A stretch of DNA of 64,000 nt from contig CAZHGQ010000001.1 in assembly GCA_964532205.1 (NCBI GenBank), positions 49,962-113,961 on the forward strand, given 5' to 3'. The notes under the pieces are model-generated. The model had not been told where the DNA came from, made no database searches, and saw only the letters and a program-made list of their open reading frames with translations. Of this stretch, positions 4,009 through 15,497 are shown piece after piece. Each line of letters begins with the position of its first letter. The stretch's first letter is position 1. This stretch comes from an uncultured Candidatus Saccharibacteria bacterium (GTDB taxonomy: Bacteria; Patescibacteriota; Minisyncoccia; Phycocordibacterales; JAKAEA01). The position numbers were made by a program, and so were the translations under genes.

Positions 4009-5559
4009 ATGTCACGTTCAACACTAAATATTCCGGAATCGTACAAGCGCGAAATTAAAATGCGCAAGGAGGTTGCCGAAAAGCAATTAAATTTTATTTA
4101 CGACAAAAAAAGCGACTTCTGGAAAAAAGAACAGGAGCGTCGAATGCTCGATTTGTTTCATACATCTGCAAAAAAAGTTGCTGCCTATAAGGATTTTATA
4201 AAAAAAGCCCGCGTTCATCCTGAGAAAATCCAGTCAATTGAAGATTTTCAGAAAGTTCTACCTGTAAACAAAGATAATTACCTCAGAAGTTATCCTTGGG
4301 AGAAACTTTGTATGCCAGGTTCATTGATTGAGCAATCACTTGTTCTCACTTCAACCTCAGGTTCAACCGGTCGACCATTCTATTTCCCTCGAAATGGTAT
4401 CCTTGATGCTCAATCATCGATTTACCACCAGATGTTCATACGTAATAGCAATCTTGATGTAAATAAATCAACGTTAGTGCTTGTCTGTTTCGGTATGGGT
4501 GTCTGGATCGGTGGCGTGATTACGTATCAGGCTTTCAAAACTATTTCTGAGCGTGGTTATCCATTAACTATTCTGACTCCAGGTGTAAATAAGCGTGAAA
4601 TTTACGAAGCGCTCAAGAATGTTGGTCCACAATATGACCAGATTATTATGTGTGGCTATCCACCATTCATGAAGGATGTTGTTGATGAGGCTAAAGAGAA
4701 TGGTGTAAATTGGAGCGATTTCAATATCCGGATGATTTTCGCTGCTGAATCGTTCTCTGAAAAATTCCGCGACTATATTATGAAGAAAACTGGCATGAAA
4801 AACCCATATCAGGACACGATGAACATTTACGGTAGTGCTGACTTGGGAACGATGGCTGAGGAAACGCCCGTTGCAATCTTAATCCGTCGACTGGCGCTTA
4901 AGCATAAACGAATTTATACAAAGTTATTCGGTCAGGCCACCCGCTTGCCAACATTTGCTCAGTACATTCCAATGTTCATAAACTTTGAGTGTACAAACAA
5001 TCGCGTGTACTGTACTGGTGATAATGTGTTACCACTCGTGCGTTATGAAATCGGTGACAATGGTGGCACCTGGTACTTTAAAGATGTTGAAAAGATCTTC
5101 GAGGAAGAGGGAATTAATCTTCGTGATGAAGCAAAAAATGTTGGCATAGATCATACAATTGCTGAACTACCATTTGTCTACGTCTACGAACGAACAGATC
5201 TCTCGACAAAACTTTACGGTGCTATTATTTATCCTGAGTACGTCAAGGTTGCTTTGCAAGAACATGCTATTGAAAAATACATTACTGGTAAATTTACAAT
5301 GTACACTAAACATGACGAAAGACAGGACGAGTATCTGGAAATTAACGTTGAGTTAAAGCCAGGTATTATTGAGTCATCATGGTTAAAGGAAGAAGTTACG
5401 AAATTAATTTCAGGTTCACTCTCACATCACAGCGCTGAACACAAGAACAATGTTCACATGCTCAATGGCAAAGTCACACCACGCATTGTGTTCTGGCCTC
5501 ATGAGCACCCAACACACTTCCAAACTGGTATTAAGCAAAAGTGGGTGAAGTCAGTTTAA
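4009..5559 (+). CDS. adenylate-forming enzyme, PaaK / coenzyme F390 synthetase / CapK-like (ANL superfamily)
   Basis: 516 aa. N-terminal-third motif LTSTSGSTGRPFYFP resembles the SSGTTGKP phosphate-binding loop of phenylacetate-CoA ligase family proteins. Exact substrate unknown. Confidence 0.55.
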   Translation: MSRSTLNIPESYKREIKMRKEVAEKQLNFIYDKKSDFWKKEQERRMLDLFHTSAKKVAAYKDFIKKARVHPEKIQSIEDFQKVLPVNKDNYLRSYPWEKLCMPGSLIEQSLVLTSTSGSTGRPFYFPRNGILDAQSSIYHQMFIRNSNLDVNKSTLVLVCFGMGVWIGGVITYQAFKTISERGYPLTILTPGVNKREIYEALKNVGPQYDQIIMCGYPPFMKDVVDEAKENGVNWSDFNIRMIFAAESFSEKFRDYIMKKTGMKNPYQDTMNIYGSADLGTMAEETPVAILIRRLALKHKRIYTKLFGQATRLPTFAQYIPMFINFECTNNRVYCTGDNVLPLVRYEIGDNGGTWYFKDVEKIFEEEGINLRDEAKNVGIDHTIAELPFVYVYERTDLSTKLYGAIIYPEYVKVALQEHAIEKYITGKFTMYTKHDERQDEYLEINVELKPGIIESSWLKEEVTKLISGSLSHHSAEHKNNVHMLNGKVTPRIVFWPHEHPTHFQTGIKQKWVKSV

Positions 5560-5580
5560 TTATTGTAATAAATTAAAAAT

Positions 5581-6762
5581 ATGTCTGATATACAAAAGCA
5601 ACTAGATGGTAAAAAAGACAATAAACATTTAAAACCCGAATTTTTTAATTTATCCAAACCGGCTGATGCTAAAAAAGTTGAAGAACTTCTGGCAAATGGC
5701 AAAATCCAGTACACGATTGACGACTACGAAGAACTCAACCTAGAGCTTTTCGGTGTAAAAAACCCCTCAAAGGTTTACACTCCCACATTTAAACAAGAAT
5801 TTAAGGATTATTACGAAAGCCTACAAAAAGAGAAGCCACTTCACGAACATGGTGTTTGGGTGTACTATCCTTGGTCTTCAAAATTAGTCCATATTCTTGA
5901 GGAATCAGACTATTTCCTTGTCCGAACTGCCCGAAATAAAAATCTTATCAACGCTCAAGAACAAGAGGCTTTCTACAATGCTAAAGTCGGTATCGGTGGT
6001 CTAAGTGTTGGTTCAAGTGTGGCCTTTGCACTTGTGTTGCAAGGTGGCCCAAAGCGCATCAAGCTCGCCGACATGGATAGATTAGCGCTTTCAAACACAA
6101 ACAGAATTCTATCAGGTGTTGAAAATCTTGGTGTGCTTAAGGTTGAAATGGCTGCCAGAAAAATTTATGAAATAAATCCTTACGCTGAAGTTGAGCTTTT
6201 CCCGGAAGGTTTAAATAAAAATAATATTGAAGTATTTTGTAAGGACCTTGATGTGGTTATCGATGAACTCGACAACTTAGCTGTTAAGTTTTTGATCCGT
6301 GAACAGGCCAAAAAGCATAAGTTGCCTGTTGTGATGGCTGCGGATAACGGTGACAACGCTGTTGTGGATGTGGAGCGATATGATCTTGATCCAAACCTGC
6401 CCTTTTTCCAGGGTAGAATGGGCGATGTAAGCTATGAAATGCTTTCAACACTTGATAAATTTGGTATTGGCAAGATGATTACCAAACATGTTGGCGCAGA
6501 AAATGTCACAGAGCGAATGCAACAGTCTCTTTTGGAAATGGGTAAGACCATTGTTTCGTGGCCTCAGCTAGGAGGCGCAGCGCTAATAAACGGTGCGGCG
6601 GTGGCCTATTGTGTTCGAAAAATACTGAATAAACAGTCTCTTGAGAAAGACCGATCTCTTATTAACATGGATAGCTTGCTTGATCCGCACTACAATACAC
6701 CAGAGCAGGTGGCTCACCGAGAGAAAATTGCTTCCGACTTTAAGAAGATTTTTGGGCTTTAG
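5581..6762 (+). CDS. ThiF/MoeB/E1-like adenylyltransferase family protein with N- and C-terminal extensions
   Basis: Rossmann motif VGIGGLSVGS followed by ADMDRLALSNTNR (matches the ThiF D-x-D-x-x-x-x-SNLNRQ signature). 393 aa, longer than ThiF/MoeB. Confidence 0.7.
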   Translation: MSDIQKQLDGKKDNKHLKPEFFNLSKPADAKKVEELLANGKIQYTIDDYEELNLELFGVKNPSKVYTPTFKQEFKDYYESLQKEKPLHEHGVWVYYPWSSKLVHILEESDYFLVRTARNKNLINAQEQEAFYNAKVGIGGLSVGSSVAFALVLQGGPKRIKLADMDRLALSNTNRILSGVENLGVLKVEMAARKIYEINPYAEVELFPEGLNKNNIEVFCKDLDVVIDELDNLAVKFLIREQAKKHKLPVVMAADNGDNAVVDVERYDLDPNLPFFQGRMGDVSYEMLSTLDKFGIGKMITKHVGAENVTERMQQSLLEMGKTIVSWPQLGGAALINGAAVAYCVRKILNKQSLEKDRSLINMDSLLDPHYNTPEQVAHREKIASDFKKIFGL

Positions 6763-7420
6763 GAGGGGATTTGGTCTTGTCTTGACTTGCTAAGTCAAAC
6801 AGTGCCTTTACTATTGAGGCAATTTCTTGATTTTCAATCATAATTCCAAATTTTTTATTCTGTGAAGAAATTGAAACTCTGTTTAGATATATATTTAGAT
6901 CATAATCGTCCTTAGTGTCTTCCTTTAAGTTTTCAATCCCCTTAACTTGAATTCCATTAGTTGTTTTTTTGGCTCTAACATGTGACATCCTACGTAGAAT
7001 ATCACCAGCCTCATTGTTAATTAAACTTGGAAATATGTTTTTAACCCCCTCCTCACCATCAAATAGAGTAATTCTTGGTCTGTGAGTATCTGAGCTTAAT
7101 TTGATTAAATCTGGAACCAACTTCTCGATATCTGAATGAATATTTTTTTGTTTCTGTTCGAGTTTTGAGACCATGATTAATAGATCCTCAGGGCTAAGCG
7201 GGCTATATTTCTTTATCTTTTTACCTCTTCCACCTTCATTTTTTTCTTTAATTAGACCTTTATTTATTAGTGATTCAGCGACATTGTATAGTGTTGTACG
7301 GTTAATTTTTGAAAGCATAGAGATGTCCTGAATACTTAAGGTTCCATTTTCAAGCAATACCAAGTACATTTTTGCCTCAGATTCACTCAAATCTAATTTT
7401 TTAAGAATTTCCTCAAACAT
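6740..7420 (-). CDS. TrmB-family HTH transcriptional regulator
   Basis: N-terminal wHTH resembling TrmB (LSESEAKMYLVLLENGTLSIQDISMLSKINRTTLYNVAESLINKGLI). Confidence 0.6.
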   Translation of the reverse strand: MFEEILKKLDLSESEAKMYLVLLENGTLSIQDISMLSKINRTTLYNVAESLINKGLIKEKNEGGRGKKIKKYSPLSPEDLLIMVSKLEQKQKNIHSDIEKLVPDLIKLSSDTHRPRITLFDGEEGVKNIFPSLINNEAGDILRRMSHVRAKKTTNGIQVKGIENLKEDTKDDYDLNIYLNRVSISSQNKKFGIMIENQEIASIVKALFDLASQDKTKSPPKAQKSS

Positions 7421-8193
7421 TATTGCTTCTTAGTTTGTAATTTTTCTGCTGTTATATATGCTTGATCAAAAAGTTTTCTAAACATCTCCGATATTTCATT
7501 GCTCTCAATAATGATGGCGAACATCTCTTTTGTCGACATTAAGCCAACCTTATTATCATAGATGGCAACGTCAGCTGGTAACTTGAGGCTTTCAGTTGGT
7601 ACTAATACAATATCGTCAAAATTAATATTTGGATGATGTCGCATCATTTCAATCGCAGCATAATCCAGTGGATGAATTCCTCTCATTTTGATATTTCTAG
7701 AAAATCTCTTAGATACGTACTCAGGCAAATACCCTGGTAATGTCTGAAAAATATCACCTACCGAAGAAGATATTCGAACAAGTGTATTTTTAGACTTTAA
7801 AGTATCCTCAAAGGCTTCAATTAAGCCGTCCCTTCCCTCAAGTAACCGTACCTTCGGTTTATGTTTTGATGTTGAGTACAAGGTACTTAGCTCAACGATT
7901 GATCTTTCTAATGAGTTTCTAACAGAACTATATTTCTCAATCATTTTTTTTGAATGATTAACAAGGACCTCGGGTGAAACAGCGGTGTATCTTTTGATTC
8001 CTGTTGCTGAAGTTATGTTCACCAAACCTTTTTTAATTAACGAATCAAGTACAACATATATGGTAGTTCTGTTAAATCCAGTCTTGAGAGAAAGGTTCCT
8101 AACAATAGTTTGACCAGATTTAAGTAGCTCGAGATATAAGCGAGCTTCATTTGAAGAAAGACCGAATTTTAATAAAATCTCTTCAGGAAGCAT
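7420..8193 (-). CDS. TrmB-family HTH transcriptional regulator (tandem paralog)
   Basis: N-terminal wHTH LSSNEARLYLELLKSGQTIVRNLSLKTGFNRTTIYVVLDSLIKKGLV, same architecture as the downstream gene. Confidence 0.6.
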   Translation of the reverse strand: MLPEEILLKFGLSSNEARLYLELLKSGQTIVRNLSLKTGFNRTTIYVVLDSLIKKGLVNITSATGIKRYTAVSPEVLVNHSKKMIEKYSSVRNSLERSIVELSTLYSTSKHKPKVRLLEGRDGLIEAFEDTLKSKNTLVRISSSVGDIFQTLPGYLPEYVSKRFSRNIKMRGIHPLDYAAIEMMRHHPNINFDDIVLVPTESLKLPADVAIYDNKVGLMSTKEMFAIIIESNEISEMFRKLFDQAYITAEKLQTKKQ

Positions 8194-8270
8194 TTGTTGT
8201 CAGAGTATAACATCAAAACTAAATTTTATCAACTATAACGCTAACTTTAGAATACTGTTATAATCACTTT

Positions 8271-9293
8271 ATGAAATCAAACTATTCCGCATGGAAGATA
8301 GACCATAAAGAGTTCGAAAAACAAAATACGGGTATTGAAAGGCTACGATTTTTAATTAGGTACGCTGTATTAGCGCCCTCAAGTCATAATACTCAGCCTT
8401 GGTATTTTAAAATATCCCAAAATCGAATATCAGTTTTTAAGGATAAAAGTAAATTGTTACCAATTGCAGATACAAATGACAGACAGTCAACAATTAGCAT
8501 TGGTTGTGCAATTCAAAATATTTTAACTGCTGCGCACTGCTATGGTTTTAATACGAGACTTGATTTTATAGAAAAGGAGCATTCTGATTCGTTGGTAGAC
8601 ATTATTTTTGAAGAATTTGAAATAGAACGTCCACATAATTACGAGGTACTAAGGTTAATTTCTCAGCGCAGAAGTAATCGCGGTAAACACACTACCGATG
8701 TGATTCCTCAATCTATTTTAAATGAAATTAAACAAATCACCTTTGAGGACGTAAAGCTTTTTATTATTGATAAACAAGAAATGGTAAATGAGCTAGGTGA
8801 AATTGCTGTTGCAGCATCAATCGAATCCATGGTCAGTGATGAATTTAGAGCAGAATTATCACACCATGTAAAACATAACTTTACTAAGTCTAAGGTTGGT
8901 ATGCCTGGTTTTAGTCAGGGAATACCTGCCCCCATATCTTTTATTCTGCCGGGTTTGTTAAAACGCTTTAATATGGAAAAAGTTGCTGAAAAACAAAATA
9001 TTAATCTATTTCAGAAGTGGACAAAGTACCTACTTATTATTGCCTCAAAAAATGACACCGAGAAAGACTGGATTAATGTAGGAAGATTGTACGAGTTAAT
9101 ATCGTTTATTTGTACTAAACATACAATAGCATTGGCACCGTGGGGTGCACCGATTCAAATTGGCTTACACTTCACAGCAATACAAAAAGTTATAAATACT
9201 GATTATCGACCTCAAATGTTTGTTAGAATGGGTATTACAAAGCATAAGGCAAGATTTTCACCAAGGGTTCCATTTAATGAGGTAATAAAATAA
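8271..9293 (+). CDS. two-domain nitroreductase-family (FMN-binding, Acg/SagB-like fold) protein
   Basis: N-terminal LRFLIRYAVLAPSSHNTQPWYF is the nitroreductase-fold signature. 340 aa suggests the duplicated-domain type. TGTTATAAT -10 lies only 7 nt before the ATG (leaderless-like). Confidence 0.6.
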   Translation: MKSNYSAWKIDHKEFEKQNTGIERLRFLIRYAVLAPSSHNTQPWYFKISQNRISVFKDKSKLLPIADTNDRQSTISIGCAIQNILTAAHCYGFNTRLDFIEKEHSDSLVDIIFEEFEIERPHNYEVLRLISQRRSNRGKHTTDVIPQSILNEIKQITFEDVKLFIIDKQEMVNELGEIAVAASIESMVSDEFRAELSHHVKHNFTKSKVGMPGFSQGIPAPISFILPGLLKRFNMEKVAEKQNINLFQKWTKYLLIIASKNDTEKDWINVGRLYELISFICTKHTIALAPWGAPIQIGLHFTAIQKVINTDYRPQMFVRMGITKHKARFSPRVPFNEVIK

Positions 9294-9298
9294 ATAAA

Positions 9299-10885
9299 AT
9301 GTCCGGATTTTTAAATATTGACCTGTTAAGCGTTGGTGTTGCGATTGCAGGAAATTTGTTAATTGGATTTGCAGCACTATTTTCAAATAAGAGGAATGCG
9401 ACAAATATATTATTTTTGCTTCAAACACTAATTCTTTCTTTGTGGAGTTTGGCTAATTATATTTCATATCAACCACACGACCCAACACTTGCATTATTTC
9501 TTGTAAGAATAGTTCTTTTCTTGGCTGTGCCAAATTCAATTATCTTCCTTATATTCATGCATACGTTTCCGTCGGAAAGTTTAAAAATGAGTAAGAGGAC
9601 ACTAATCGCTTTGATAATTGTATCTATCGTAACTATGGGGATCACCCTTTCACCATTTCTATTTCAAAAAGTTGTAATTAATAATACTGGTGCGCCCACT
9701 CCAGTACCGGGTGTAGGAATCATACCTTTCTTTGTAGTAAGTATTATTTCCTTACCACTTGGCTTTTATTACTTAGTAAAAAATTATTTTTTTGCAAAAG
9801 CAGACGAGAAAAAGCAATTTGCTTTTTTGCTGTTAGGTGTTGTGATCACTTTTACGACAATAATGACTTTTAATTTTATTTTCCCTAGTTTTCTCAAGAA
9901 TTCACGCTTTATTCCTCTGAGTGCCGTTTTTACCTTACCGTTTGTAATCTTTACTGCATACGCAATATATAAATATAAGCTATTTAAAATCAAGGACATC
10001 TTCACCGTCTTCATTGCGCTGGCATTGACGGTTGTAACATTCGTCGAAATTATCTTCTCCGTAGGTCTTCCTCAGGTTATTTTCCGAGTCAGCATCTTCA
10101 CAATCGTTCTGATCTTCAGCATTCGTATGATCCGTGACATGTTTGCGCTTGAATTCGCCAACGAGCGGCTCAAGGAACTCGACAAAATGAAGTCCGAGTT
10201 CGTCTCGCTGGCCACCCACCAAATCCGCGCGCCATTGACCGCTATTAAAGGCTACATTTCGCTCATTCAGGAAGGGGACTACGGCCAAGTACCAGCACCA
10301 ATTGCCGGCGCCATCGACATTATCATGCAGTCGACAAATAACCTGGTTACTATTGTTGGCGATTTCCTCGATGTCTCACGTATTGAACTCGGCCGCATGA
10401 AGTATGACTATTCTGATTTTGACTTCCAGGAGCTCGTGCAGCAAGTTGTGACTGAATACAAGCCAAATGTCGAGAAGAAAGGTCTCAATTTCAGCTACAG
10501 TTTTGATCAAAGCAAGCAGTACATGGTCCACGCTGATCGCGGCAAGATCAAGCAGGTTATTGGTAACATTATCGACAACTCTATCAAGTACACGTTGCAA
10601 GGATTCGTTAAAGTTGAACTCGGCTTTTCAAAAACAAGTCCGAATAGCGTTTTGGTCAAGGTTTATGACAGCGGTGTTGGTATTCCGGCAGCCACAATTC
10701 CAAAACTCTTCCAAAAATTTACTCGTGCGGAAAATGCCAACGATGCCAATATTCTCGGTACTGGCCTAGGTCTTTATGTGGCTAAACAAATGATTGATGC
10801 TCATCAGGGCAAACTCTGGGCTGAATCTGAGGGACAGGGTAAGGGGGCGCAGTTCTATATTGAGTTGCCGGTTAAGGGTGTGTAG
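9299..10885 (+). CDS. membrane sensor histidine kinase (no adjacent response regulator)
   Basis: About 7 N-terminal TM helices, HisKA H-box SEFVSLATHQIRAPL, HATPase_c G-boxes GVGIP and GTGLGLYVAKQMI. Confidence 0.85.
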   Translation: MSGFLNIDLLSVGVAIAGNLLIGFAALFSNKRNATNILFLLQTLILSLWSLANYISYQPHDPTLALFLVRIVLFLAVPNSIIFLIFMHTFPSESLKMSKRTLIALIIVSIVTMGITLSPFLFQKVVINNTGAPTPVPGVGIIPFFVVSIISLPLGFYYLVKNYFFAKADEKKQFAFLLLGVVITFTTIMTFNFIFPSFLKNSRFIPLSAVFTLPFVIFTAYAIYKYKLFKIKDIFTVFIALALTVVTFVEIIFSVGLPQVIFRVSIFTIVLIFSIRMIRDMFALEFANERLKELDKMKSEFVSLATHQIRAPLTAIKGYISLIQEGDYGQVPAPIAGAIDIIMQSTNNLVTIVGDFLDVSRIELGRMKYDYSDFDFQELVQQVVTEYKPNVEKKGLNFSYSFDQSKQYMVHADRGKIKQVIGNIIDNSIKYTLQGFVKVELGFSKTSPNSVLVKVYDSGVGIPAATIPKLFQKFTRAENANDANILGTGLGLYVAKQMIDAHQGKLWAESEGQGKGAQFYIELPVKGV

Positions 10886-11201
10886 ATTCCTGTAAGTAAT
10901 CAATCACTCCTTGGCGGATATACCAGGTAAAATAGGTACCAAAATAAAATAAGTCTTGTCTTCGTTCCATCATGTCATGAGCATGTCGAATATAATTCCG
11001 ACTGGCTTGCGGAAAGTATTTCCAGCCAGCCGACATTAACGCCTCGATATATTTGGTTTTAATGAAATGCTTTTTTGCATATTGGCGTACAACATTTTTA
11101 ATGAGACCACTAAAATATCGTCGACATTCCAGCTCATTAATTTCGTTTAATTGTGCGTTTTCTATAAGCTCTAATTCTTTTTGAAATCGTTTATCAAACA
11201 T
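10872..11201 (-). CDS. hypothetical protein
   Basis: 109-aa ORF overlapping the kinase stop by 14 nt; no recognisable motif. Confidence 0.35.
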   Translation of the reverse strand: MFDKRFQKELELIENAQLNEINELECRRYFSGLIKNVVRQYAKKHFIKTKYIEALMSAGWKYFPQASRNYIRHAHDMMERRQDLFYFGTYFTWYIRQGVIDYLQESTHP

Positions 11202-11248
11202 TGGATGTATTTTATAAAAACCGATGGAGTTTATCCATCGGTTGCAGT

Positions 11249-11425: not shown

Positions 11426-11761
11426 GTAATACTCCTTTCTGAAGTTGTTTGGAACCTCTTATGAAGCTCATCTTACTTCTGACTTAATAATCTTAAATTT
11501 AAATTTGATGTAAATTTGCGACAGGTAATATCTAACATATTAACTAAATGTCAAAAAGTAATTATTGTGCTGACACTAAAAAATACTAAGACAAAAGAGG
11601 TTTTTTGATATTTGTCGTAGATATTAGACACAGAAATAAATTTATTTTATTATCTCTGTAATTCTGATTTAAGTTATTGACAGTAGATATTAAACTCTGG
11701 CTGTAACTTGACAAAAGCATAAATCCATTTAGTATTGTAATCAGTTTTTCTTGGAGGAAAT

Positions 11762-12805
11762 ATGGGTTCTTTTGAAACGTCTGCGCGTCAGCATAATGTA
11801 GCCTGGCTTACCCTGAATCGATCGTGCAACTTTCGTTGTCCGTGGTGCTATGCTCAAGGTACTGGTTTTGATCCAAAAAAGAGTCTGACCTACGACTTTG
11901 CTGTCATACTACTCAACATCATTACCGCTCTGCGCGTTAAGCTGATCATTTTGATCGGCGGTGAGCCAACGTTGTGGCCAGATTTGATTTTGTTCAATCG
12001 ACTGCTTAAGACTAAAGACATTCAAAGTGTCATTGTGACCAATGCGTACCGTTTTGGTAACAATACGTTTTGGACGGCCTACAACGAAGTTCCAAATGAC
12101 GGGGTCAATATATCACTCAAAGCCTGGGATGCCGCAAGTATGAAGTCGATCATTGGTAATGCCGACTTTGAAATACTCAAACGCGGCATTAGCCGAGGAC
12201 TCGAGTATTCCGGCGGCTCACTAAGCTTTGTAGTTTCAGAACAGTGTCTAGATCATCTTGTAGAAATGGCAGGGCTGGCAAAAAGCCTAGGCGCTCAGCG
12301 CTTAAATTTAACGATGTGTGAGCCATATATCGTTAATGGTGAGACTGAGGCTCAGGGTCTGGTTTCCACACAACGACTCAATGAGCGCTTTGTTCCTGCA
12401 TTCGCCCATGTACGCAAGCTTATGCATGAAAATGTCTCAGTCTCACTAAAAACACCCCTGTGCTTGTGGCCGAGAGACTTTCTGCAGGGTCTGATTGATC
12501 GCAAACAGCTTGTCACCGGCTGTCAGCTTCAACATCGCTCTGGTCTAATCTTTGATTACGACGGCGCTGTCTCAGTTTGCAATGGCCTCACCGACTATCC
12601 AGTCGCTAGGTACGAAACAGACTACCAGTCAGCCCCAGAACTTCAACGTAAACTTGAGTCTGAAGAAGTGGTACAATTGTACGATACAATGACGTCATAT
12701 CCGAGTACGCGTTGTAACGGATGCCCAATGTGGGAGAACTGTGGTGGTGGCTGCCCACTGTTCTGGACGTTGTATAAGCCAGAAGAGGTCATCCCTGGTT
12801 GGTGA
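11762..12805 (+). CDS. radical SAM / SPASM-domain peptide-modifying enzyme (anSME-like maturase)
   Basis: CNFRCPWCY = CxxxCxxC radical SAM cluster at residues 22-29. C-terminal CNGCPMWENCGGGCPLF = CX2CX5CX3C SPASM signature. GGAGGA SD precedes the ATG. Confidence 0.85.
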   Translation: MGSFETSARQHNVAWLTLNRSCNFRCPWCYAQGTGFDPKKSLTYDFAVILLNIITALRVKLIILIGGEPTLWPDLILFNRLLKTKDIQSVIVTNAYRFGNNTFWTAYNEVPNDGVNISLKAWDAASMKSIIGNADFEILKRGISRGLEYSGGSLSFVVSEQCLDHLVEMAGLAKSLGAQRLNLTMCEPYIVNGETEAQGLVSTQRLNERFVPAFAHVRKLMHENVSVSLKTPLCLWPRDFLQGLIDRKQLVTGCQLQHRSGLIFDYDGAVSVCNGLTDYPVARYETDYQSAPELQRKLESEEVVQLYDTMTSYPSTRCNGCPMWENCGGGCPLFWTLYKPEEVIPGW

Positions 12806-12822
12806 CCAGAAAGTGAGATGTC

Positions 12823-12993
12823 GTGAAAGGCATCAAACAACTTCTTAGAGTAACCGGACAGAAGGCGCCCCCAATCAAGGGGTTCCGGTCACAACCGCCA
12901 TCAACCAAAGCAGCAGGCTCAAAACAGCTGAACCTGGTTGACGGCAAGTGCCAGTGCGCTGACTGCGACTGCATCGACGAATGTCGAGATTAG
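12823..12993 (+). CDS. candidate RiPP precursor peptide, Cys-rich C-terminus (56 aa, GTG start uncertain)
   Basis: Only long frame between the rSAM stop and the downstream terminator: VKGIKQLLRVTGQKAPPIKGFRSQPPSTKAAGSKQLNLVDGKCQCADCDCIDECRD. Five Cys in the last 14 residues. Followed by its own terminator. Not in the ORF track (under 60 aa). Confidence 0.45.
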   Translation: MKGIKQLLRVTGQKAPPIKGFRSQPPSTKAAGSKQLNLVDGKCQCADCDCIDECRD

Positions 12994-12999
12994 TCGTCA

Positions 13000-13040
13000 A
13001 GCCCTGATTGTAGTATAATCACTGCAATTAGGGCTTTTTC
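13000..13040 (+). terminator. rho-independent terminator after the Cys-rich peptide ORF
   Basis: AGCCCTGATTG-N14-CAATTAGGGCT (10/11 bp stem) followed by TTTTT. A TATAAT inside the loop may also serve the next gene. Confidence 0.5.
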
Positions 13041-13042
13041 AT

Positions 13043-13651
13043 ATGAAATTCAACTACCACTTCTCAGAAGAGTTGGAACAAGAGCGAGTCGAGTATACCC
13101 GTAGCAAGCTTGATTTTTATACTCAAAATGGCTACCCAGTACACCTGCCACAAACCACGATTGAAGCTGAGTGGTCTGTTGATATATATGAACAGGCCAT
13201 AGCAACTATTTCAACCATCATTGATTCATACAGTCATACATTCCATGCCGGTGCCTTGGCAGCGCACCTTACTCTGTCAGATGAATACAATATTCAACTC
13301 ACACGCTACGGTGTGGGAGGGAGTTACAATCAGCCAAATACGGTTATCATCAATATTTTAAAAAAATCAGGCGAAACCAAAGGCCCACAATCACTTATAG
13401 AAAGTATTTTTCATGAAATAACTCATCTCATCATTGAGATGCAAATTCAAAAATATAATATTTCACACTGGGATAAAGAAATCATTGTTAATCTATTACT
13501 AGCAAAATTGATTCCTGAATTTGCACCTCGTATTGAGCAGAATAAATCTTCCGCTAAAGAACAGATCTGTAATCTTTTTGAAACGTTATATCCGGATGTG
13601 GAGGGGATTATCGCTGGGGTCGGGGAGGGGTATAGAGAAAAGATAAGTTGA
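13043..13651 (+). CDS. hypothetical protein with HExxH motif (possible zinc metallopeptidase)
   Basis: 202 aa with FHEITHLIIEM (HExxH); no other recognisable domain. Confidence 0.45.
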   Translation: MKFNYHFSEELEQERVEYTRSKLDFYTQNGYPVHLPQTTIEAEWSVDIYEQAIATISTIIDSYSHTFHAGALAAHLTLSDEYNIQLTRYGVGGSYNQPNTVIINILKKSGETKGPQSLIESIFHEITHLIIEMQIQKYNISHWDKEIIVNLLLAKLIPEFAPRIEQNKSSAKEQICNLFETLYPDVEGIIAGVGEGYREKIS

Positions 13652-13736
13652 CAAACCCATAAAAATAAGTTACATTAAAACCAGAAAGCCCTATTGTGTT
13701 GTAGGGTCAAGTCTCTTCTAAAAAAGGAGGTGGGGC

Positions 13737-14438
13737 ATGAATCCCACACGCATACGTTTGGTTTTGGCTCTGGTATTTGTGTTATGTACCAAAGCCTCGT
13801 ACGGTGGATCGTTCAGCATCCATACGTTTACCACAGAATCGGGCACGGGCCTGGATTCGCGCTTGTCATACACTCACTTGGTGGACACCACCATTGAGGA
13901 AATGACACCAGACAAGCTGGCGACCATCAATGGCGTGCATTTTACCCAGGGCCTTGAGCGCTGCGGTACGAATTACACAGTCAGTGGTCAGGCTGGCGGC
14001 ACGTACAACGCTTACGATGTCAACACTGGCATCTACAAGCTTCTGTACGACTACCTGTTCGATGATGAGAGTCCAACACTGCTCATCAATCTGACGGGTT
14101 TGACGCCCGGCACGGCGTACGACCTGCGCTTGTATAACGGCGGCATCTACCCGTACATCCACAAGAAGTACAAGGTAGAAGTCACTAATGGTGGTATGAC
14201 CGACAGCCTGATCGACTACGATCAATTGGCCTACGGCATGCACTATCTGCAGTACGAGTACACGGCCGAATCTAGCGCATTGGCTATTTCCATTACGCGG
14301 ACTGAGAATGCCAATGCCACTGAGATCAAGTACATGCTGGCCGGTTTCACCAATTCGGTGGTACCAGCGGCGGTTCCGGAGCCAAGCTGTTTGATGTGCG
14401 GCATCGTGATCATGACGATCATGGGTCGAAAACGCTGA
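13737..14438 (+). CDS. secreted protein with C-terminal PEP-CTERM-type sorting signal
   Basis: N-terminal signal peptide MNPTRIRLVLALVFVLCTKASYGG. C-terminus AVPEPSCLMCGIVIMTIMGRKR-stop has a VPEP motif, hydrophobic helix and basic RKR tail. Strong SD AAAAAGGAGGTG. Clearly higher GC than its neighbours. Confidence 0.65.
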   Translation: MNPTRIRLVLALVFVLCTKASYGGSFSIHTFTTESGTGLDSRLSYTHLVDTTIEEMTPDKLATINGVHFTQGLERCGTNYTVSGQAGGTYNAYDVNTGIYKLLYDYLFDDESPTLLINLTGLTPGTAYDLRLYNGGIYPYIHKKYKVEVTNGGMTDSLIDYDQLAYGMHYLQYEYTAESSALAISITRTENANATEIKYMLAGFTNSVVPAAVPEPSCLMCGIVIMTIMGRKR

Positions 14439-14464
14439 ACCACATTTTGTGCTCTAAGAAAAAA

Positions 14465-14491
14465 GGCGACATGACGTCGCCTTTTCTTTTT
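14465..14491. terminator. bidirectional rho-independent terminator
   Basis: GGCGAC-atga-CGTCGCC hairpin flanked by A-run and TTTTCTTTTT. Confidence 0.65.
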
Positions 14492-14516
14492 GTCTGATTT
14501 TTTGTACTATTGCCGT

Positions 14517-15497
14517 ATGTCATCAACTAAGATCATGGTGTCGGGAGTAAAGCCGACTGGCCGACCACACATCGGCAACTATTTCGGCGCAATGCGTCAA
14601 TTTGTTGAATTGGCTAAGAGTCACAAAAGCTACGTCTTTGTGGCCGATTTACATGCTTTGAACACGGTTCAGAATAAGGAGCAGATGCAGCAAAATATTA
14701 TTGACGTGACCTTGGATTACTTGGCTATCGGCCTTGATCCAAAAAATACTGTACTATTCAAACAATCAGACGTACCGGCTCACACTGAACTGACTTGGAT
14801 TTTTAATACCTTAGCAACCATGCCGTACTTGATGCGGGCTCACGCTTTTAAGGATGCTGAGGCTAAAAATAAGGAAATTAATGTTGGCACCTTTGATTAC
14901 CCAATGCTCATGGCTGCCGATATTTTATTGTACAGTCCCGATGTAGTACCTGTCGGCCAAGATCAAAAGCAGCATGTGGAAATTGCTCGCGACATGGCTC
15001 GCAAATTCAATCAAACATACGGCGAGACATTTAAGGAACCAAAAGAATATATTGTCGAGAACGTGAAAGTCGTGCCTGGCACTGACGGTCAGAAAATGTC
15101 AAAGAGTTATAACAACACAATTCCATTATTTGCCACAGACGAAGAAATCAAGAAAGCAGTTATGAGTATCCCGACTGATTCAAAGGGGATTGATGAGTCA
15201 AAAAATCCTGATGAAGACAAAATTTTTGCCCTGCACCAACTTTTTGCTTCAGCTGATGAGGTGGCTGACATTCGGGCTCGTTACGAGAAAGGTGGCTTGG
15301 GCTATAAGGAATCAAAAGAGATTTTGATCAAAAACATCTCAACGTTTATTACGCCAATACGCGAAAAGCGTGAGGCTTTAGCTAAAAATCCTCAGGCAAT
15401 TTTAGATATCCTCAAAGCTGGTGGGGAACAGGCTCGAGCCGTTGCCCAGACCAAATTGGCCGAGGTGCGAGATAAGATTGGTATTGCTCTTTATTAA
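14517..15497 (+). CDS. trpS: tryptophan--tRNA ligase
   Basis: Class I HIGH-like PTGRPHIGNYFGA and KMSKS (KMSKSYNN); about 330 aa. ATG at 14517 preferred over the track's TTG at 14490, which lies inside the terminator. Confidence 0.9.
   Translation: MSSTKIMVSGVKPTGRPHIGNYFGAMRQFVELAKSHKSYVFVADLHALNTVQNKEQMQQNIIDVTLDYLAIGLDPKNTVLFKQSDVPAHTELTWIFNTLATMPYLMRAHAFKDAEAKNKEINVGTFDYPMLMAADILLYSPDVVPVGQDQKQHVEIARDMARKFNQTYGETFKEPKEYIVENVKVVPGTDGQKMSKSYNNTIPLFATDEEIKKAVMSIPTDSKGIDESKNPDEDKIFALHQLFASADEVADIRARYEKGGLGYKESKEILIKNISTFITPIREKREALAKNPQAILDILKAGGEQARAVAQTKLAEVRDKIGIALY

Follow-up and report, generated by a model that had tools for sequence, protein, structure and literature searches.

A three-gene cassette encoding a compact radical SAM/SPASM enzyme, a cysteine-rich peptide and an HExxH protein is a candidate RiPP locus of CPR bacteria

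Introduction

Ranthipeptide systems, represented by PapB/PapA (freyrasin) and by SCIFF with CteB or Tte1186, combine a radical SAM/SPASM enzyme with a leader-bearing, Cys-rich precursor, and the precursor gene lies upstream of the maturase gene. The maturases are approximately 450 aa long and carry an N-terminal RRE domain, the cores follow CX3D or SCIFF patterns, and the loci contain the usual protease/transporter set. PapB joins Cys to the β-carbon of Asp with 0–6 intervening residues (PMC9413430; PMC10177961). Sactipeptide maturases (AlbA, SkfB, StsB and RumMC) are SPASM or twitch enzymes that join Cys sulfur to the α-carbons of varied acceptors. Sactipeptide cores contain few Cys residues, which reside in the N-terminal half and are paired with distant acceptors to produce hairpins, and dense CxC repeats are not found in them.

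The systems of the Haft type (FibroRumin, ACGX-repeat, CXXX-repeat, the Cys-every-fifth CefB, GeoRSP and SynChlorMet ScmE/F) possess short, RRE-less SPASM enzymes of 325–360 aa encoded beside small Cys-rich repeat peptides; they were defined from comparative genomics alone and their chemistry is not established. HExxH proteins encoded in RiPP clusters can be α-ketoglutarate (αKG)-dependent hydroxylases rather than peptidases (PMC12636437), as is the case for ChlH, BpmH and PflC (IPR026337). The anaerobic sulfatase-maturating enzyme anSME is likewise a compact radical SAM protein with a SPASM domain and no RRE, and it acts on Cys.

The genomes of CPR bacteria (Patescibacteria) are very small and confer only a limited capacity for biosynthesis. 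Here we describe a cassette in a CPR genome of the Parcubacteria type, found in a 64-kb stretch of DNA (the window), which consists of genes for a radical SAM/SPASM enzyme, a precursor peptide and an HExxH protein. We estimate a probability of roughly 0.55 that the three genes form one RiPP-type operon with a promoter and a leaky terminator hairpin. The cassette shares with ranthipeptide systems the combination of a SPASM enzyme and a leader-bearing Cys-rich precursor, but its enzyme has only 347 aa with no RRE and lacks the last SPASM Cys, its precursor gene is downstream of the enzyme gene, its leader motif is different, its core is built of CxC repeats, and an HExxH partner takes the place of the protease/transporter set. 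With the Haft-type systems it shares a short RRE-less enzyme encoded beside a small Cys-rich repeat peptide and recognition through comparative genomics; its leader motif, its HExxH partner and its CPR-centred distribution are specific to the cassette family. We found no description of the family in the published literature, and it is possible that the family is present, unnamed, in large sequence-similarity-network atlases of radical SAM enzymes.

Results

The cassette occupies approximately 1.9 kb (Table 1). The analysis shows its gene content, the conservation of the arrangement of the three genes, its leader and cofactor-binding motifs and its folds, and the cassette belongs to a rare, uncharacterised family of modified-peptide loci residing mainly in ultra-small CPR bacteria. 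Many Saccharibacteria and Parcubacteria retain it, among them the oral genus Nanosyncoccus. The original prediction had proposed a candidate RiPP locus made up of the enzyme gene and the small Cys-rich ORF that follows it, and this reading was supported, with comparative genomics providing the deciding evidence; each of the three conditions named in advance as refuting it was checked, and all three results favoured it. Details of the gene arrangement had to be corrected. The gap between the enzyme stop codon and the peptide ORF is 17 nt, not 18 nt, and the gene that follows the peptide gene is not the PEP-CTERM-like gene, as had been claimed, but the gene for the HExxH protein, which had been omitted. 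An Rfam scan of the window detected a single tRNA and no riboswitch near the operon. No exporter or transporter recurred across the related loci, which is unusual for a secreted RiPP.

Table 1. Features of the cassette and of its neighbourhood in the window.
Feature	Coordinates	Strand	Evidence or remarks
7TM-receptor histidine kinase	9299..10885	+	Pfam domains HisKA_7TM, HisKA and HATPase_c
Sigma-70-like promoter candidate, TTGACA-16-TAGTAT	11708..11735	+	10/12 consensus matches; 27 nt upstream of the enzyme start codon; match to consensus only
Radical SAM/SPASM enzyme, compact, 347 aa	11762..12805	+	PF04055, TIGR04085, invariant Cys, AF2 model
Precursor peptide ORF, 56 aa, GTG start	12823..12993	+	Sequence, leader alignment, leader HMM, enrichment statistics
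Leader motif, peptide residues 1–22	12823–12888	+	MKGIKQLLRVTGQKAPPIKGFR
Linker, peptide residues 23–42	within 12823..12993	+	
Cys/Asp-rich core, peptide residues 43–56	12949–12990	+	CQCADCDCIDECRD
Peptide stop codon	12991–12993	+	
Intrinsic-terminator-like hairpin	12999..13036	+	Separates the peptide gene from the HExxH gene; stem, folding energy, positional conservation
HExxH-X17-E zincin-fold protein, 202 aa	13043..13651	+	Putative leader peptidase
PEP-CTERM-like ORF	13737–14438		One gene beyond the HExxH gene

The pairing of enzyme and peptide was examined in 81 non-redundant loci that contain a homologous enzyme. A small ORF with both a leader-motif match and a Cys-rich tail was present within 1.3 kb of the enzyme in 55 of the 81 loci, and no such ORF was found in 518 kb of more distant flank. 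The majority of the other 26 loci also have adjacent Cys-rich ORFs, with divergent leaders. When all stop-to-stop ORFs of 25–150 aa in the 81 loci (16,115 ORFs) were compared, Cys-rich tails were encountered in 49 of 254 ORFs located directly downstream of the enzyme versus 104 of 15,861 elsewhere (odds ratio 36; Fisher p = 3e-51). The enzyme homologs almost always adjoin a small Cys-rich ORF, a pattern that exceeds chance.

The radical SAM motif CNFRCPWC was confirmed at residues 22–29 of the enzyme, as was the predicted SPASM motif, CNGCPMWENCGGGC, at residues 318–331. The enzyme scored 50.2 bits against the radical SAM superfamily model PF04055 (cutoff 29.5) and 29.3 bits against the SPASM model TIGR04085, narrowly over the cutoff of 27. 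The cysteines of the CX3CX2C motif (C22, C26 and C29) and those of the SPASM domain (C254-X13-G268-X4-C273 and C318-X2-C-X5-C-X3-C331) are invariant in 41 enzyme homologs. The SPASM pattern as defined for TIGR04085 (CX9-15GX4C ... CX2CX5CX3C ... C) comprises seven Cys residues that ligate two auxiliary clusters; however, no Cys follows C331 in the enzyme, so that the usual seventh and last Cys, which supplies auxiliary cluster II with its fourth ligand, is absent. Given this absence, the cluster arrangement may differ from that of known enzymes. The alignment of homologs uncovered two additional cysteines, the invariant C234 and the near-invariant C186, either of which may stand in for the missing one; judged by sequence alignment, C234 resembles the upstream residue that serves as fourth ligand in anSME and SuiB, where auxiliary cluster I is fully ligated.

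The AF2 model of the enzyme is confident (pLDDT 93.2) and its first strand is formed by residues 13–17, leaving no N-terminal RRE domain. The nearest folds are those of BlsE, SuiB, SkfB, anSME and CteB (TM 0.60–0.69), and the greatest similarity is to the peptide-modifying SPASM enzymes SuiB, SkfB, anSME and CteB. The closest homolog is 45% identical in sequence, and the best among GTDB representatives is 44% identical. The original prediction that the locus matches no nameable family held: for none of the three proteins (enzyme, peptide and HExxH protein) is there a fitting NCBIfam equivalog, Pfam family or PDB relative. The PapB-type maturase model (NF047865) gave 37.8 bits against a cutoff of 340, in an alignment restricted to residues 16–76; the enzyme lacks the N-terminal domain, and no peptide matched a SCIFF model. 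SkfB and StsB are among the best matches of the enzyme in sequence as well as in structure; nevertheless, the sactipeptide maturase models (AlbA, NF012164; SkfB, TIGR04403; StsB, NF045574) were rejected, the StsB score being 48.1 bits versus a cutoff of 625 (45–77 bits for the homologs), and the RRE is missing. Membership in FibroRumin, ACGX, ScmE/F, GeoRSP or CefB was discarded likewise, with scores of at most 88 bits versus cutoffs of 400–600; the best scores were 84–88 bits, for a cutoff of 400. For distant enzymes of the family the best partial matches were ScmF, ACGX and GeoRSP, and one of 20 peptides weakly matched the FibroRumin target model FibroRuminTarg (E = 0.041).

The 56-aa ORF ends with DGKCQCADCDCIDECRD, in which the five Cys residues are spaced C-x-C-x2-C-x-C-x3-C as had been claimed. 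GTG is the sole canonical start in the stop-to-stop frame, and it is preceded by an imperfect Shine-Dalgarno sequence, GAAAGTGAG. The frame is conserved at the protein level, since its N-terminus aligns with the leader motif (LLxxLxVTGIxPxxxPxGL across the family) of peptides whose cognate enzymes share only 28–45% identity. When the leader HMM was run over 17,914 ORFs, nearly all significant matches were enzyme-adjacent ORFs. The window peptide scored 12.5 bits although it was itself a seed of the HMM, and the only second match in the window, at 7.8 bits, was noise. The exact peptide sequence is missing from a collection of 15 billion proteins, which indicates that it was never called as a gene.

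In contrast to the leader, only the Cys pattern is retained in the cores. Among 66 peptides the median is five Cys, and 49% of the Cys-Cys spacings are CxC and 20% CxxC. Position x of the CxC motif is occupied by D (39% of the motifs) or N (13%), and K, R, Q, E, P, A and Y are found as well. Core length varies between 5 residues (CKICH) and 48 residues (a core with 15 Cys), and core charge between acidic and strongly basic. A leader joined to a variable core next to a modifying enzyme appears, from the sequences, to agree with the general definition of a RiPP locus.

The terminator claimed to follow the peptide gene is real, having a 16-bp stem followed by a T-run. Six pairs of the stem are GC, the folding energy is -24.3 kcal/mol, and the hairpin is more stable than shuffled sequences (z = -8.35). 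Of 20 related loci that were inspected, most likewise have a strong hairpin at this position. The hairpin abuts the ATG of the HExxH gene, and expression of that gene should depend on read-through; the hairpin is probably a leaky terminator or a transcript stabiliser.

The HExxH protein contains YGVGGSY at residues 89–95, H124-E125-x-x-H128 and K145-E146. The partner is present in 30–38 loci, and its HExxH, KE and GxxGxY motifs are invariant. Neither a signal peptide nor a transmembrane segment was detected, and the protein is predicted to be cytoplasmic. A structure prediction for the family, built with 10 database homologs, showed a zincin fold, which together with HExxH and a downstream Glu as third ligand places the protein among gluzincin-like zincins. 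At E <= 0.01, its sole NCBIfam match was SprT. We slightly favour a role as leader peptidase for this protein.

Discussion

We propose that the 56-aa precursor would be recognized through its conserved N-terminal leader, LLxxLxVTGxxxPPxxGF; as there is no RRE domain in the enzyme, the leader would have to be bound directly. SAM would be cleaved at the C22/C26/C29 cluster to generate a 5'-deoxyadenosyl radical, which would take a hydrogen atom from a core residue, and the enzyme, aided by its SPASM auxiliary Fe-S clusters, would then join Cys sulfur to the radical-bearing carbon. The outcome would be a core, the CxC-repeat segment CQCADCDCIDECRD, that carries several thioether cross-links, and the likeliest acceptors would be the Asp/Asn-type residues between the cysteines. 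The hairpin would keep the precursor transcript plentiful while a fraction of the transcripts continues into the HExxH gene, and the leader would subsequently be cut off by the cytoplasmic, gluzincin-like HExxH protein. The mature peptide might serve in antagonism, in signalling or in metal binding.

In our analysis, thioether cross-linking of the core has close to an even chance, if slightly below it. To our knowledge, all characterised SPASM enzymes for which Cys is the conserved feature of the substrate form thioethers or, in the case of anSME, oxidise the Cys. The tolerance of PapB for 0–6 intervening residues in the Cys-to-Asp linkage (PMC9413430) makes such chemistry compatible with a core in which Cys and Asp alternate. 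Conversely, the enzyme is distant from every characterised thioether synthase, PapB and StsB included, and lacks the RRE. That the family has no conserved acceptor residue also counts against thioether formation; however, the varied acceptors of sactipeptide maturases would account for an unconserved residue between the cysteines.

A different purpose of the product has to be considered, namely that it is a metallothionein-like or cluster-binding peptide, the core of which acts chiefly as a ligand for metal or Fe-S inside the cell, with the enzyme installing another modification or a few cross-links that pre-organise the chelator. The core, rich in CxC and CxxC (together 69% of spacings) and poor in aromatic residues, does resemble metallothioneins in composition (Cys 28%, Asp 13% and Gly 11%); both Asp and Cys serve as metal ligands, and the Cys pattern is the sole core feature conserved across the family. 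The lack of a recurrent exporter and the predicted cytoplasmic location of the HExxH partner are also in agreement with an intracellular role. Nevertheless, a search with 20 peptides against Pfam and NCBIfam gave no match to a metallothionein family at a threshold as loose as E <= 10. Metallothioneins require no leader, radical SAM enzyme or protease, yet the association is almost invariant here, and the wide variation in core length and charge is less readily explained for a housekeeping chelator than for a secreted or antagonistic peptide under diversifying selection. We regard such a purpose of the product as unlikely. This proposal overlaps with that of a cross-linked RiPP: the cassette exists under both, and what separates them is chiefly the use to which the product is put.

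Somewhat less likely still is that the HExxH protein is an Fe(II)/αKG-dependent oxygenase like ChlH, BpmH and PflC, which would β-hydroxylate core Asp/Asn, possibly after cross-linking, with any removal of the leader left to a protease encoded elsewhere. Such a function would suit the cores of the window's subclade, in which Asp and Glu account for 22–38% of the residues, and the known αKG-HExxH enzymes are typically fused to, or encoded beside, radical SAM RiPP enzymes. However, the HExxH partner is also encoded next to basic cores devoid of Asp (e.g. loci L041 and L043). It has no detectable sequence relationship to the known hydroxylases: the curated αKG HEXXH-domain model was unmatched, in contrast to SprT, and 8s5f was not recovered by a PDB profile search at E <= 10. 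The protein is also much smaller (202 aa versus 342 residues in the solved ChlH chain), and proteases are equal or better matches to its fold. Its HExxH-X17-E spacing is gluzincin-like; in M1 aminopeptidases the pattern is HExxH-X18-E. CPR bacteria are mostly anaerobic fermenters that have no TCA cycle, and an enzyme dependent on O2 and αKG is therefore less expected in them.

An anSME-like reaction, in which one or more core Cys residues would be oxidised to formylglycine or another oxidised species and no cross-links would be made, is improbable. The enzyme and anSME (about 370 aa) have the compact RRE-less architecture in common, anSME is among the best structural matches (TM 0.65–0.67 when normalised to the query and 0.61–0.64 when normalised to the target), and the alignment suggests that C234 corresponds to the upstream fourth ligand of auxiliary cluster I. 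In contrast to these similarities, the anSME model TIGR03942 is outside the best 25 NCBIfam matches of the enzyme, and the homologs score only 45.8–58.2 bits (45.8–57.6 for close homologs, with 45.8 for the close homolog P0003), far under the cutoff of 349. Neither a sulfatase nor a sulfatase-like target motif was found in the peptides or the neighbourhoods, no sulfatase recurs nearby, and the substrate is instead a dedicated small peptide that bears a leader. We know of no precedent for multiple adjacent formylglycines in a small peptide.

It is very improbable that the 56-aa frame is a chance or decaying ORF and that the enzyme acts on another substrate: the GTG start, the imperfect Shine-Dalgarno sequence, the weak leader-HMM score and the absence of the exact peptide from the protein collection speak for it, but position, strand, length, start-to-motif register, the Cys-rich tail and the following hairpin all fit the family pattern, and the other leader-HMM match in the window is mere noise.

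The cassette is now defined by its anatomy, that is, the leader motif, the CxC-repeat core, the compact maturase, the attenuator hairpin and the HExxH partner. Enzymologists gain from it a minimal peptide maturase of the SPASM type, approximately 345 aa long, that would recognize a leader without an RRE and in which a canonical auxiliary-cluster ligand is missing. The system is small and could thus be easily synthesised and tested. The cassette is a tractable way into the chemistry that episymbionts may use on hosts or competitors. A bolder proposal, which we consider doubtful, is that these CPR-centred RRE-less SPASM enzymes, in which auxiliary cluster II lacks its canonical fourth ligand, catalyse an undescribed modification of CxC-repeat peptides, the product of which mediates episymbiont-host or CPR-CPR interaction and is possibly sensed by the 7TM histidine kinase. 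Such a modification might, for example, build very small thioether rings into a contiguous ladder over alternating Cys and Asp, or produce a cross-linked thiolate/carboxylate metal cage.

The kinase may be functionally linked to the cassette, an association that is weak: in 9 of approximately 75 loci, the window included, a homologous 7TM histidine kinase is encoded no more than 3.5 kb from the enzyme. The PEP-CTERM-like gene was rejected as a member of the cassette; it has its own promoter-like site (13648–13676) and its own terminator (14461–14485), and it has no counterpart in the related loci. The original prediction that the peptide gene and the PEP-CTERM-like gene were acquired together as a GC-rich unit was unsupported, as the PEP-CTERM-like gene is not recurrent and the contrast in GC content is weak. 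The enzyme and peptide genes (45–50% GC) exceed the window mean of approximately 42% by only about 3–8 points, the HExxH gene (34–43%) is under the mean, and the PEP-CTERM-like gene has 51–54%. The true GC outlier in the window is a low-GC stretch at 4–10 kb.

The peptide gene and its leader

The radical SAM/SPASM enzyme and the 56-aa Cys-rich reading frame behind it constitute, with a probability that we put at about 0.9, a RiPP-type maturase-precursor pair. The original prediction had described the 347-aa enzyme with its two Cys motifs, a Cys-rich peptide ORF, which conservation across loci marks as precursor-type, and a terminator-like hairpin 3′ of the peptide, and all three were found in the window. 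It correctly placed the Cys-rich ORF 3′ of the enzyme, but the gene that follows encodes an HExxH protein, which it had missed. The peptide GTG lies 17 nt after the enzyme stop codon, is the sole canonical start within its stop-to-stop frame, and has the purine-rich sequence GAAAGTGAG 5 nt upstream.

Features of the cassette and its surroundings (window coordinates)
Feature	Position	Strand	Evidence or remarks
516-aa protein	4009-5559		no Pfam match
ThiF-family E1-like protein	5581-6762
Two TrmB-type regulators, divergently oriented	6740-8193	minus
Acg/Rv3131-type FMN nitroreductase-like protein	8271-9293		191.5 bits vs cutoff 199
7TM-receptor histidine kinase (HisKA_7TM)	9299-10885	+	Pfam domains
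Candidate promoter-like site	11708-11735	+	consensus match; near-consensus TTGACA-16-TAGTAT
Radical SAM/SPASM enzyme, 347 aa	11762-12805	+	CNFRCPWC residues 22-29; CNGCPMWENCGGGC residues 318-331
Precursor-type peptide, 56 aa	12823-12993	+	GTG start; MKGIKQLLRVTGQKAPPIKGFRSQPPSTKAAGSKQLNLVDGKCQCADCDCIDECRD
Hairpin, 16-bp + T-run	12999-13036	+	-24.3 kcal/mol
HExxH protein, 202 aa	13043-13651	+	YGVGGSY 89-95, HEITH 124-128, KE 145-146
PEP-CTERM-like protein, 233 aa	13737-14438		signal peptide; C-terminus VPEPSCLMCGIVIMTIMGRKR, VPEP-TM-RKR tail
Tryptophanyl-tRNA synthetase	14490-15497		65-76% identity to Paceibacter, Parcubacteria, Pacebacteria, Minisyncoccia and Patescibacteria group proteins

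We sampled 80 loci from GTDB species representatives and several metagenomic loci carrying an enzyme homolog (L numbers below). A small ORF with a Cys-rich tail adjoined the enzyme gene in almost every one, usually on the same strand and directly downstream; it lay directly upstream in some loci (e.g. L051, L055, L063, L077, L078 and L085) and, in L012, L015, L016 and L030, on the opposite strand with one gene in between. By inspection, a candidate peptide was lacking only in L019 and L031, whose contigs end just after the enzyme, and in L082. The peptides have a common N-terminal motif, M-x-x-L-L-x-x-L-x-(V/L)-(S/T)-G-(I/V)-x-P-x-x-x-P-x-G-(L/I), with which the window peptide is in register (MKGIKQLLRVTGQKAPPIKGF). 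For an HMM built on the first 32 residues and run against 17,914 stop-to-stop ORFs of window and loci, nearly every significant match was enzyme-adjacent. Consistent with the co-occurrence that the original prediction had implied, 55 of 81 non-redundant loci carry, no more than 1.3 kb from the enzyme, an ORF that reaches 9 bits or more and has 2 or more Cys among its last 25 residues, and no ORF in 518 kb of farther flank satisfied the same score and Cys rule. Even with the leader ignored, Cys-rich tails were found in 49/254 directly downstream ORFs vs 104/15,861 others (odds ratio 36, p = 3e-51). The score of the window peptide is a modest 12.5 bits, and this peptide is itself a seed of the HMM. 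Because its position, strand, length, register, tail and 3′ hairpin all fit the family, the window ORF is, as judged from sequence, a real precursor-type gene.

The 66 collected peptides have a median length of 53 aa and a median of 5 Cys (range 2-15). Counted from the first Cys of the core, they contain 28% Cys, 13% Asp, 11% Gly and 6.5% Asn, and the Cys-Cys spacing is CxC in 49% and CxxC in 20% of cases. Core charge spans strongly acidic to strongly basic: the cores of the window's subclade are acidic (DCDCDC-type, 22-38% Asp/Glu), and CKCRCANCKCNCYCSQCKNC is a basic example. This anatomy, in which a conserved leader precedes a hypervariable core that keeps only its Cys pattern, is the classic layout of a RiPP precursor. 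When 20 peptides were compared with curated precursor and metallothionein families at E <= 10, the only match was a weak one of a single peptide to FibroRumin-target (E = 0.041).

The enzyme

The enzyme matched Pfam Radical_SAM clearly (50.2 bits vs a cutoff of 29.5) and the SPASM model TIGR04085 barely (29.3 vs 27); the window ORFs include no second CX3CX2C enzyme-like protein. Among 41 homologs C22/C26/C29, C234, C254, G268, C273, C318, C321, C327 and C331 are invariant or nearly so, and C186 is near-invariant (at least 90% conserved). C254-X13-G-X4-C273 followed by CX2CX5CX3C makes up the SPASM signature. The C-terminus extends only 16 residues past C331 and contains no Cys, so that auxiliary cluster II is without its usual last ligand. 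This last SPASM Cys, after CX3C, is absent family-wide, and two extra conserved Cys lie upstream, the invariant C234 and C186. In a profile alignment C234 pairs with the Cys of the SuiB sequence GCHLF, which we take to be the upstream ligand of auxiliary cluster I in SuiB.

In the high-confidence AF2 model (pLDDT 93.2, pTM 0.90) the first strand, residues 13-17, comes right before the CX3CX2C loop, which predicts an enzyme without an N-terminal RRE (RiPP recognition) domain. The closest solved structures are BlsE, SuiB, SkfB, anSME, CteB and PqqE (TM 0.59-0.69, 12-18% identity), and the top hit of a profile-to-PDB search was SuiB (E = 1.3e-18). No NCBIfam equivalog was approached by the window enzyme or by 8 homologs spanning the family: scores vs cutoffs were 37.8 vs 340 for PapB, 48 vs 625 for StsB, at most 58 vs 349 for anSME and at most 88 vs 400 for ScmF. 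Every test of membership in a curated family that was applied failed. The earlier statement that enzyme and peptide fit no nameable family therefore holds, and clustering with anSME is excluded by the scores.

Product chemistry

To our knowledge, characterised SPASM enzymes whose substrates have Cys as the sole conserved core feature make Cys-to-carbon thioethers (sactipeptides, ranthipeptides, QhpD, NxxcB), anSME being the exception. Because Cys is the only conserved core feature here as well, and in view of these precedents, the Cys-Asp links of PapB and the D/N-rich CxC centres, the enzyme would form thioether cross-links from core Cys, a tentative proposal that we place at or slightly below even odds. 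PapB makes links from Cys to the Asp beta-carbon across 0-6 intervening residues (PMC9413430), and an auxiliary cluster can be bound by substrate Cys or Sec (PMC10177961). The CxC centre is D or N in 52% of cases in the 66 peptides (D 39%, N 13%, K 10%, R 8%, Q 7%). Such wide variation argues against a single acceptor, so that a sactionine-type link to an alpha-carbon, or some new chemistry, is equally possible. A metal-binding peptide is a live alternative as the product, given the metallothionein-like composition of the core. No transporter recurs across the loci; an ABC-like protein is present in only 7.

The HExxH protein

The cassette of enzyme, peptide and zincin is conserved, and its cofactor motifs and folds are established. 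Homologs of the HExxH protein lie immediately 3′ of the peptide gene (38 ORFs by iterated HMM, 30 loci by BLAST clustering), all with HExxH. G90, G93, Y95, H124, E125, H128 and E146 are invariant in the family alignments, and K145 is invariant in one and nearly so in the other. The protein is predicted to be cytoplasmic, and Pfam, NCBIfam and PDB sequence searches returned only weak SprT-like and DUF6782 matches. The predicted ligand spacing is HExxH-X17-E; M1 aminopeptidases have HExxH-X18-E. CPR bacteria are largely anaerobic and TCA-poor. We lean slightly towards a putative peptidase, because of the gluzincin-like ligand spacing, hydrolase fold matches that are as good or better, and CPR physiology. 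Alternatively, the protein may be an alpha-ketoglutarate-dependent hydroxylase like ChlH. ChlH represents the recently recognised HExxH oxygenases, whose hydroxylation targets are Asp and His residues of RiPPs modified by radical SAM enzymes (PMC12636437), and it is a caution against the peptidase reading.

A second, unrelated-looking HExxH family, FAM2 (about 215-230 aa, HE[ILMF][ST]H[FAL]), is encoded 3′ of the cassette in 24 further loci, e.g. L011 7180-7821, L022 2364-3748, L027 5817-6506 and L032 6203-6856, with about 20 more. Its copies are sometimes tandem, and the window has none.

Operon layout and regulation

The hairpin (z = -8.35; 0/200 shuffles fold as well) takes up the 49 nt separating the peptide and HExxH genes, and the HExxH ATG comes 6 nt after it. 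This leaves no room for a separate promoter, and expression of the HExxH gene would require read-through. A strong hairpin separates the peptide stop from the next gene in most of 20 related loci checked. In RiPP operons an attenuator 3′ of the precursor gene commonly gives a high precursor:enzyme ratio.

A 109-aa ORF (10872-11201, minus), divergent from the cassette, may be a small cassette regulator; it has no Pfam match, and its C-terminal part FGTYFTWYIRQGVIDYL looks like sigma-70 region 2 by eye. A 119-aa homolog has the same divergent placement in L014 (3920-4279, minus). Just past the start of the 109-aa ORF, in the AT-rich 560-nt spacer 5′ of the cassette, is a 10-bp GC-containing hairpin (11219-11243, AACCGATGGAG...CTCCATCGGTT-like). 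In 9 loci, including L010, L012, L023, L037 and L067, a homolog of the HisKA_7TM kinase lies no more than 3.5 kb from the enzyme, a recurrence that hints weakly at a link in regulation or sensing; no response regulator adjoins the kinase in the window.

Distribution and neighbouring genes

The similarity of the tryptophanyl-tRNA synthetase to its CPR counterparts places the window in a Parcubacteria-type CPR bacterium. A word-indexed search returned 213 enzyme homologs. Among 1.84 billion 50%-identity representatives, searched exhaustively, 139 clusters matched at E <= 1e-30 and 440 at E <= 1e-10. The closest relative is only 45% identical; the family is rare, and the window's member is an outlier in it. 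Of 80 GTDB loci, 44 are CPR-labelled (24 Saccharibacteria-type, including Nanosyncoccus and Saccharimonas, and 20 Parcubacteria, Patescibacteria and other CPR) and 10 are unclassified 'bacterium'; the others are Firmicutes (15), Proteobacteria (5), Myxococcales (3, one MAG), Verrucomicrobiia, Nitrospirota and Bacteroidota. The Myxococcales MAG JBNKEI01 (L046, L047, L071) has three paralogous enzymes; each is accompanied by a Cys-rich peptide with a long leader, and the three peptides differ.

The family falls into the well-known category of radical SAM/SPASM systems paired with a Cys-rich peptide. Its set of features is its own: the maturase is about 345 aa long and has neither an RRE nor the terminal SPASM Cys; the peptide gene, usually downstream of the enzyme, encodes a distinct leader motif and CxC-repeat cores; an attenuator hairpin is conserved; the HExxH-X17-E partner is unclassified; and the distribution is CPR-centred. 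Full-text literature searches turned up no account of the enzyme-peptide-HExxH family, with the caveat that large rSAM network atlases may contain it without a name.

Many related cassettes have another radical SAM gene nearby, a larger one of about 435-455 aa (L001 2358-4765, L015 8071-9541, L024 4431-5897, and L014, L016, L023 and L037), and at least two of these genes have their own Cys-rich peptide 3′ (L015 ...NCDCYDCDYNCEECDSK; L024 ...GCDCYDCNYNCEECDNK); several such peptide cassettes thus seem to lie together in CPR genomes.

The original prediction had also included the PEP-CTERM-like gene in an acquired unit. This gene is separate: it has a promoter-like site and a terminator to itself and does not recur in related loci. 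The GC argument is weak. It has the highest GC of the neighbourhood (51-54%) and matches NF038129 weakly (18.7 bits vs 65). A PEP-CTERM/exosortase-type sorting signal is unexpected in CPR bacteria, which are without an outer membrane, and the gene may have been horizontally acquired. The region 5′ of the kinase (4009-9293) has the lowest GC in the window (33-39%), and its nitroreductase-like protein gives partial matches to the Rv1355c ThiF-nitroreductase fusion. ThiF and nitroreductase are paired in other peptide-modification systems, and this region could be a second, unrelated modification locus.
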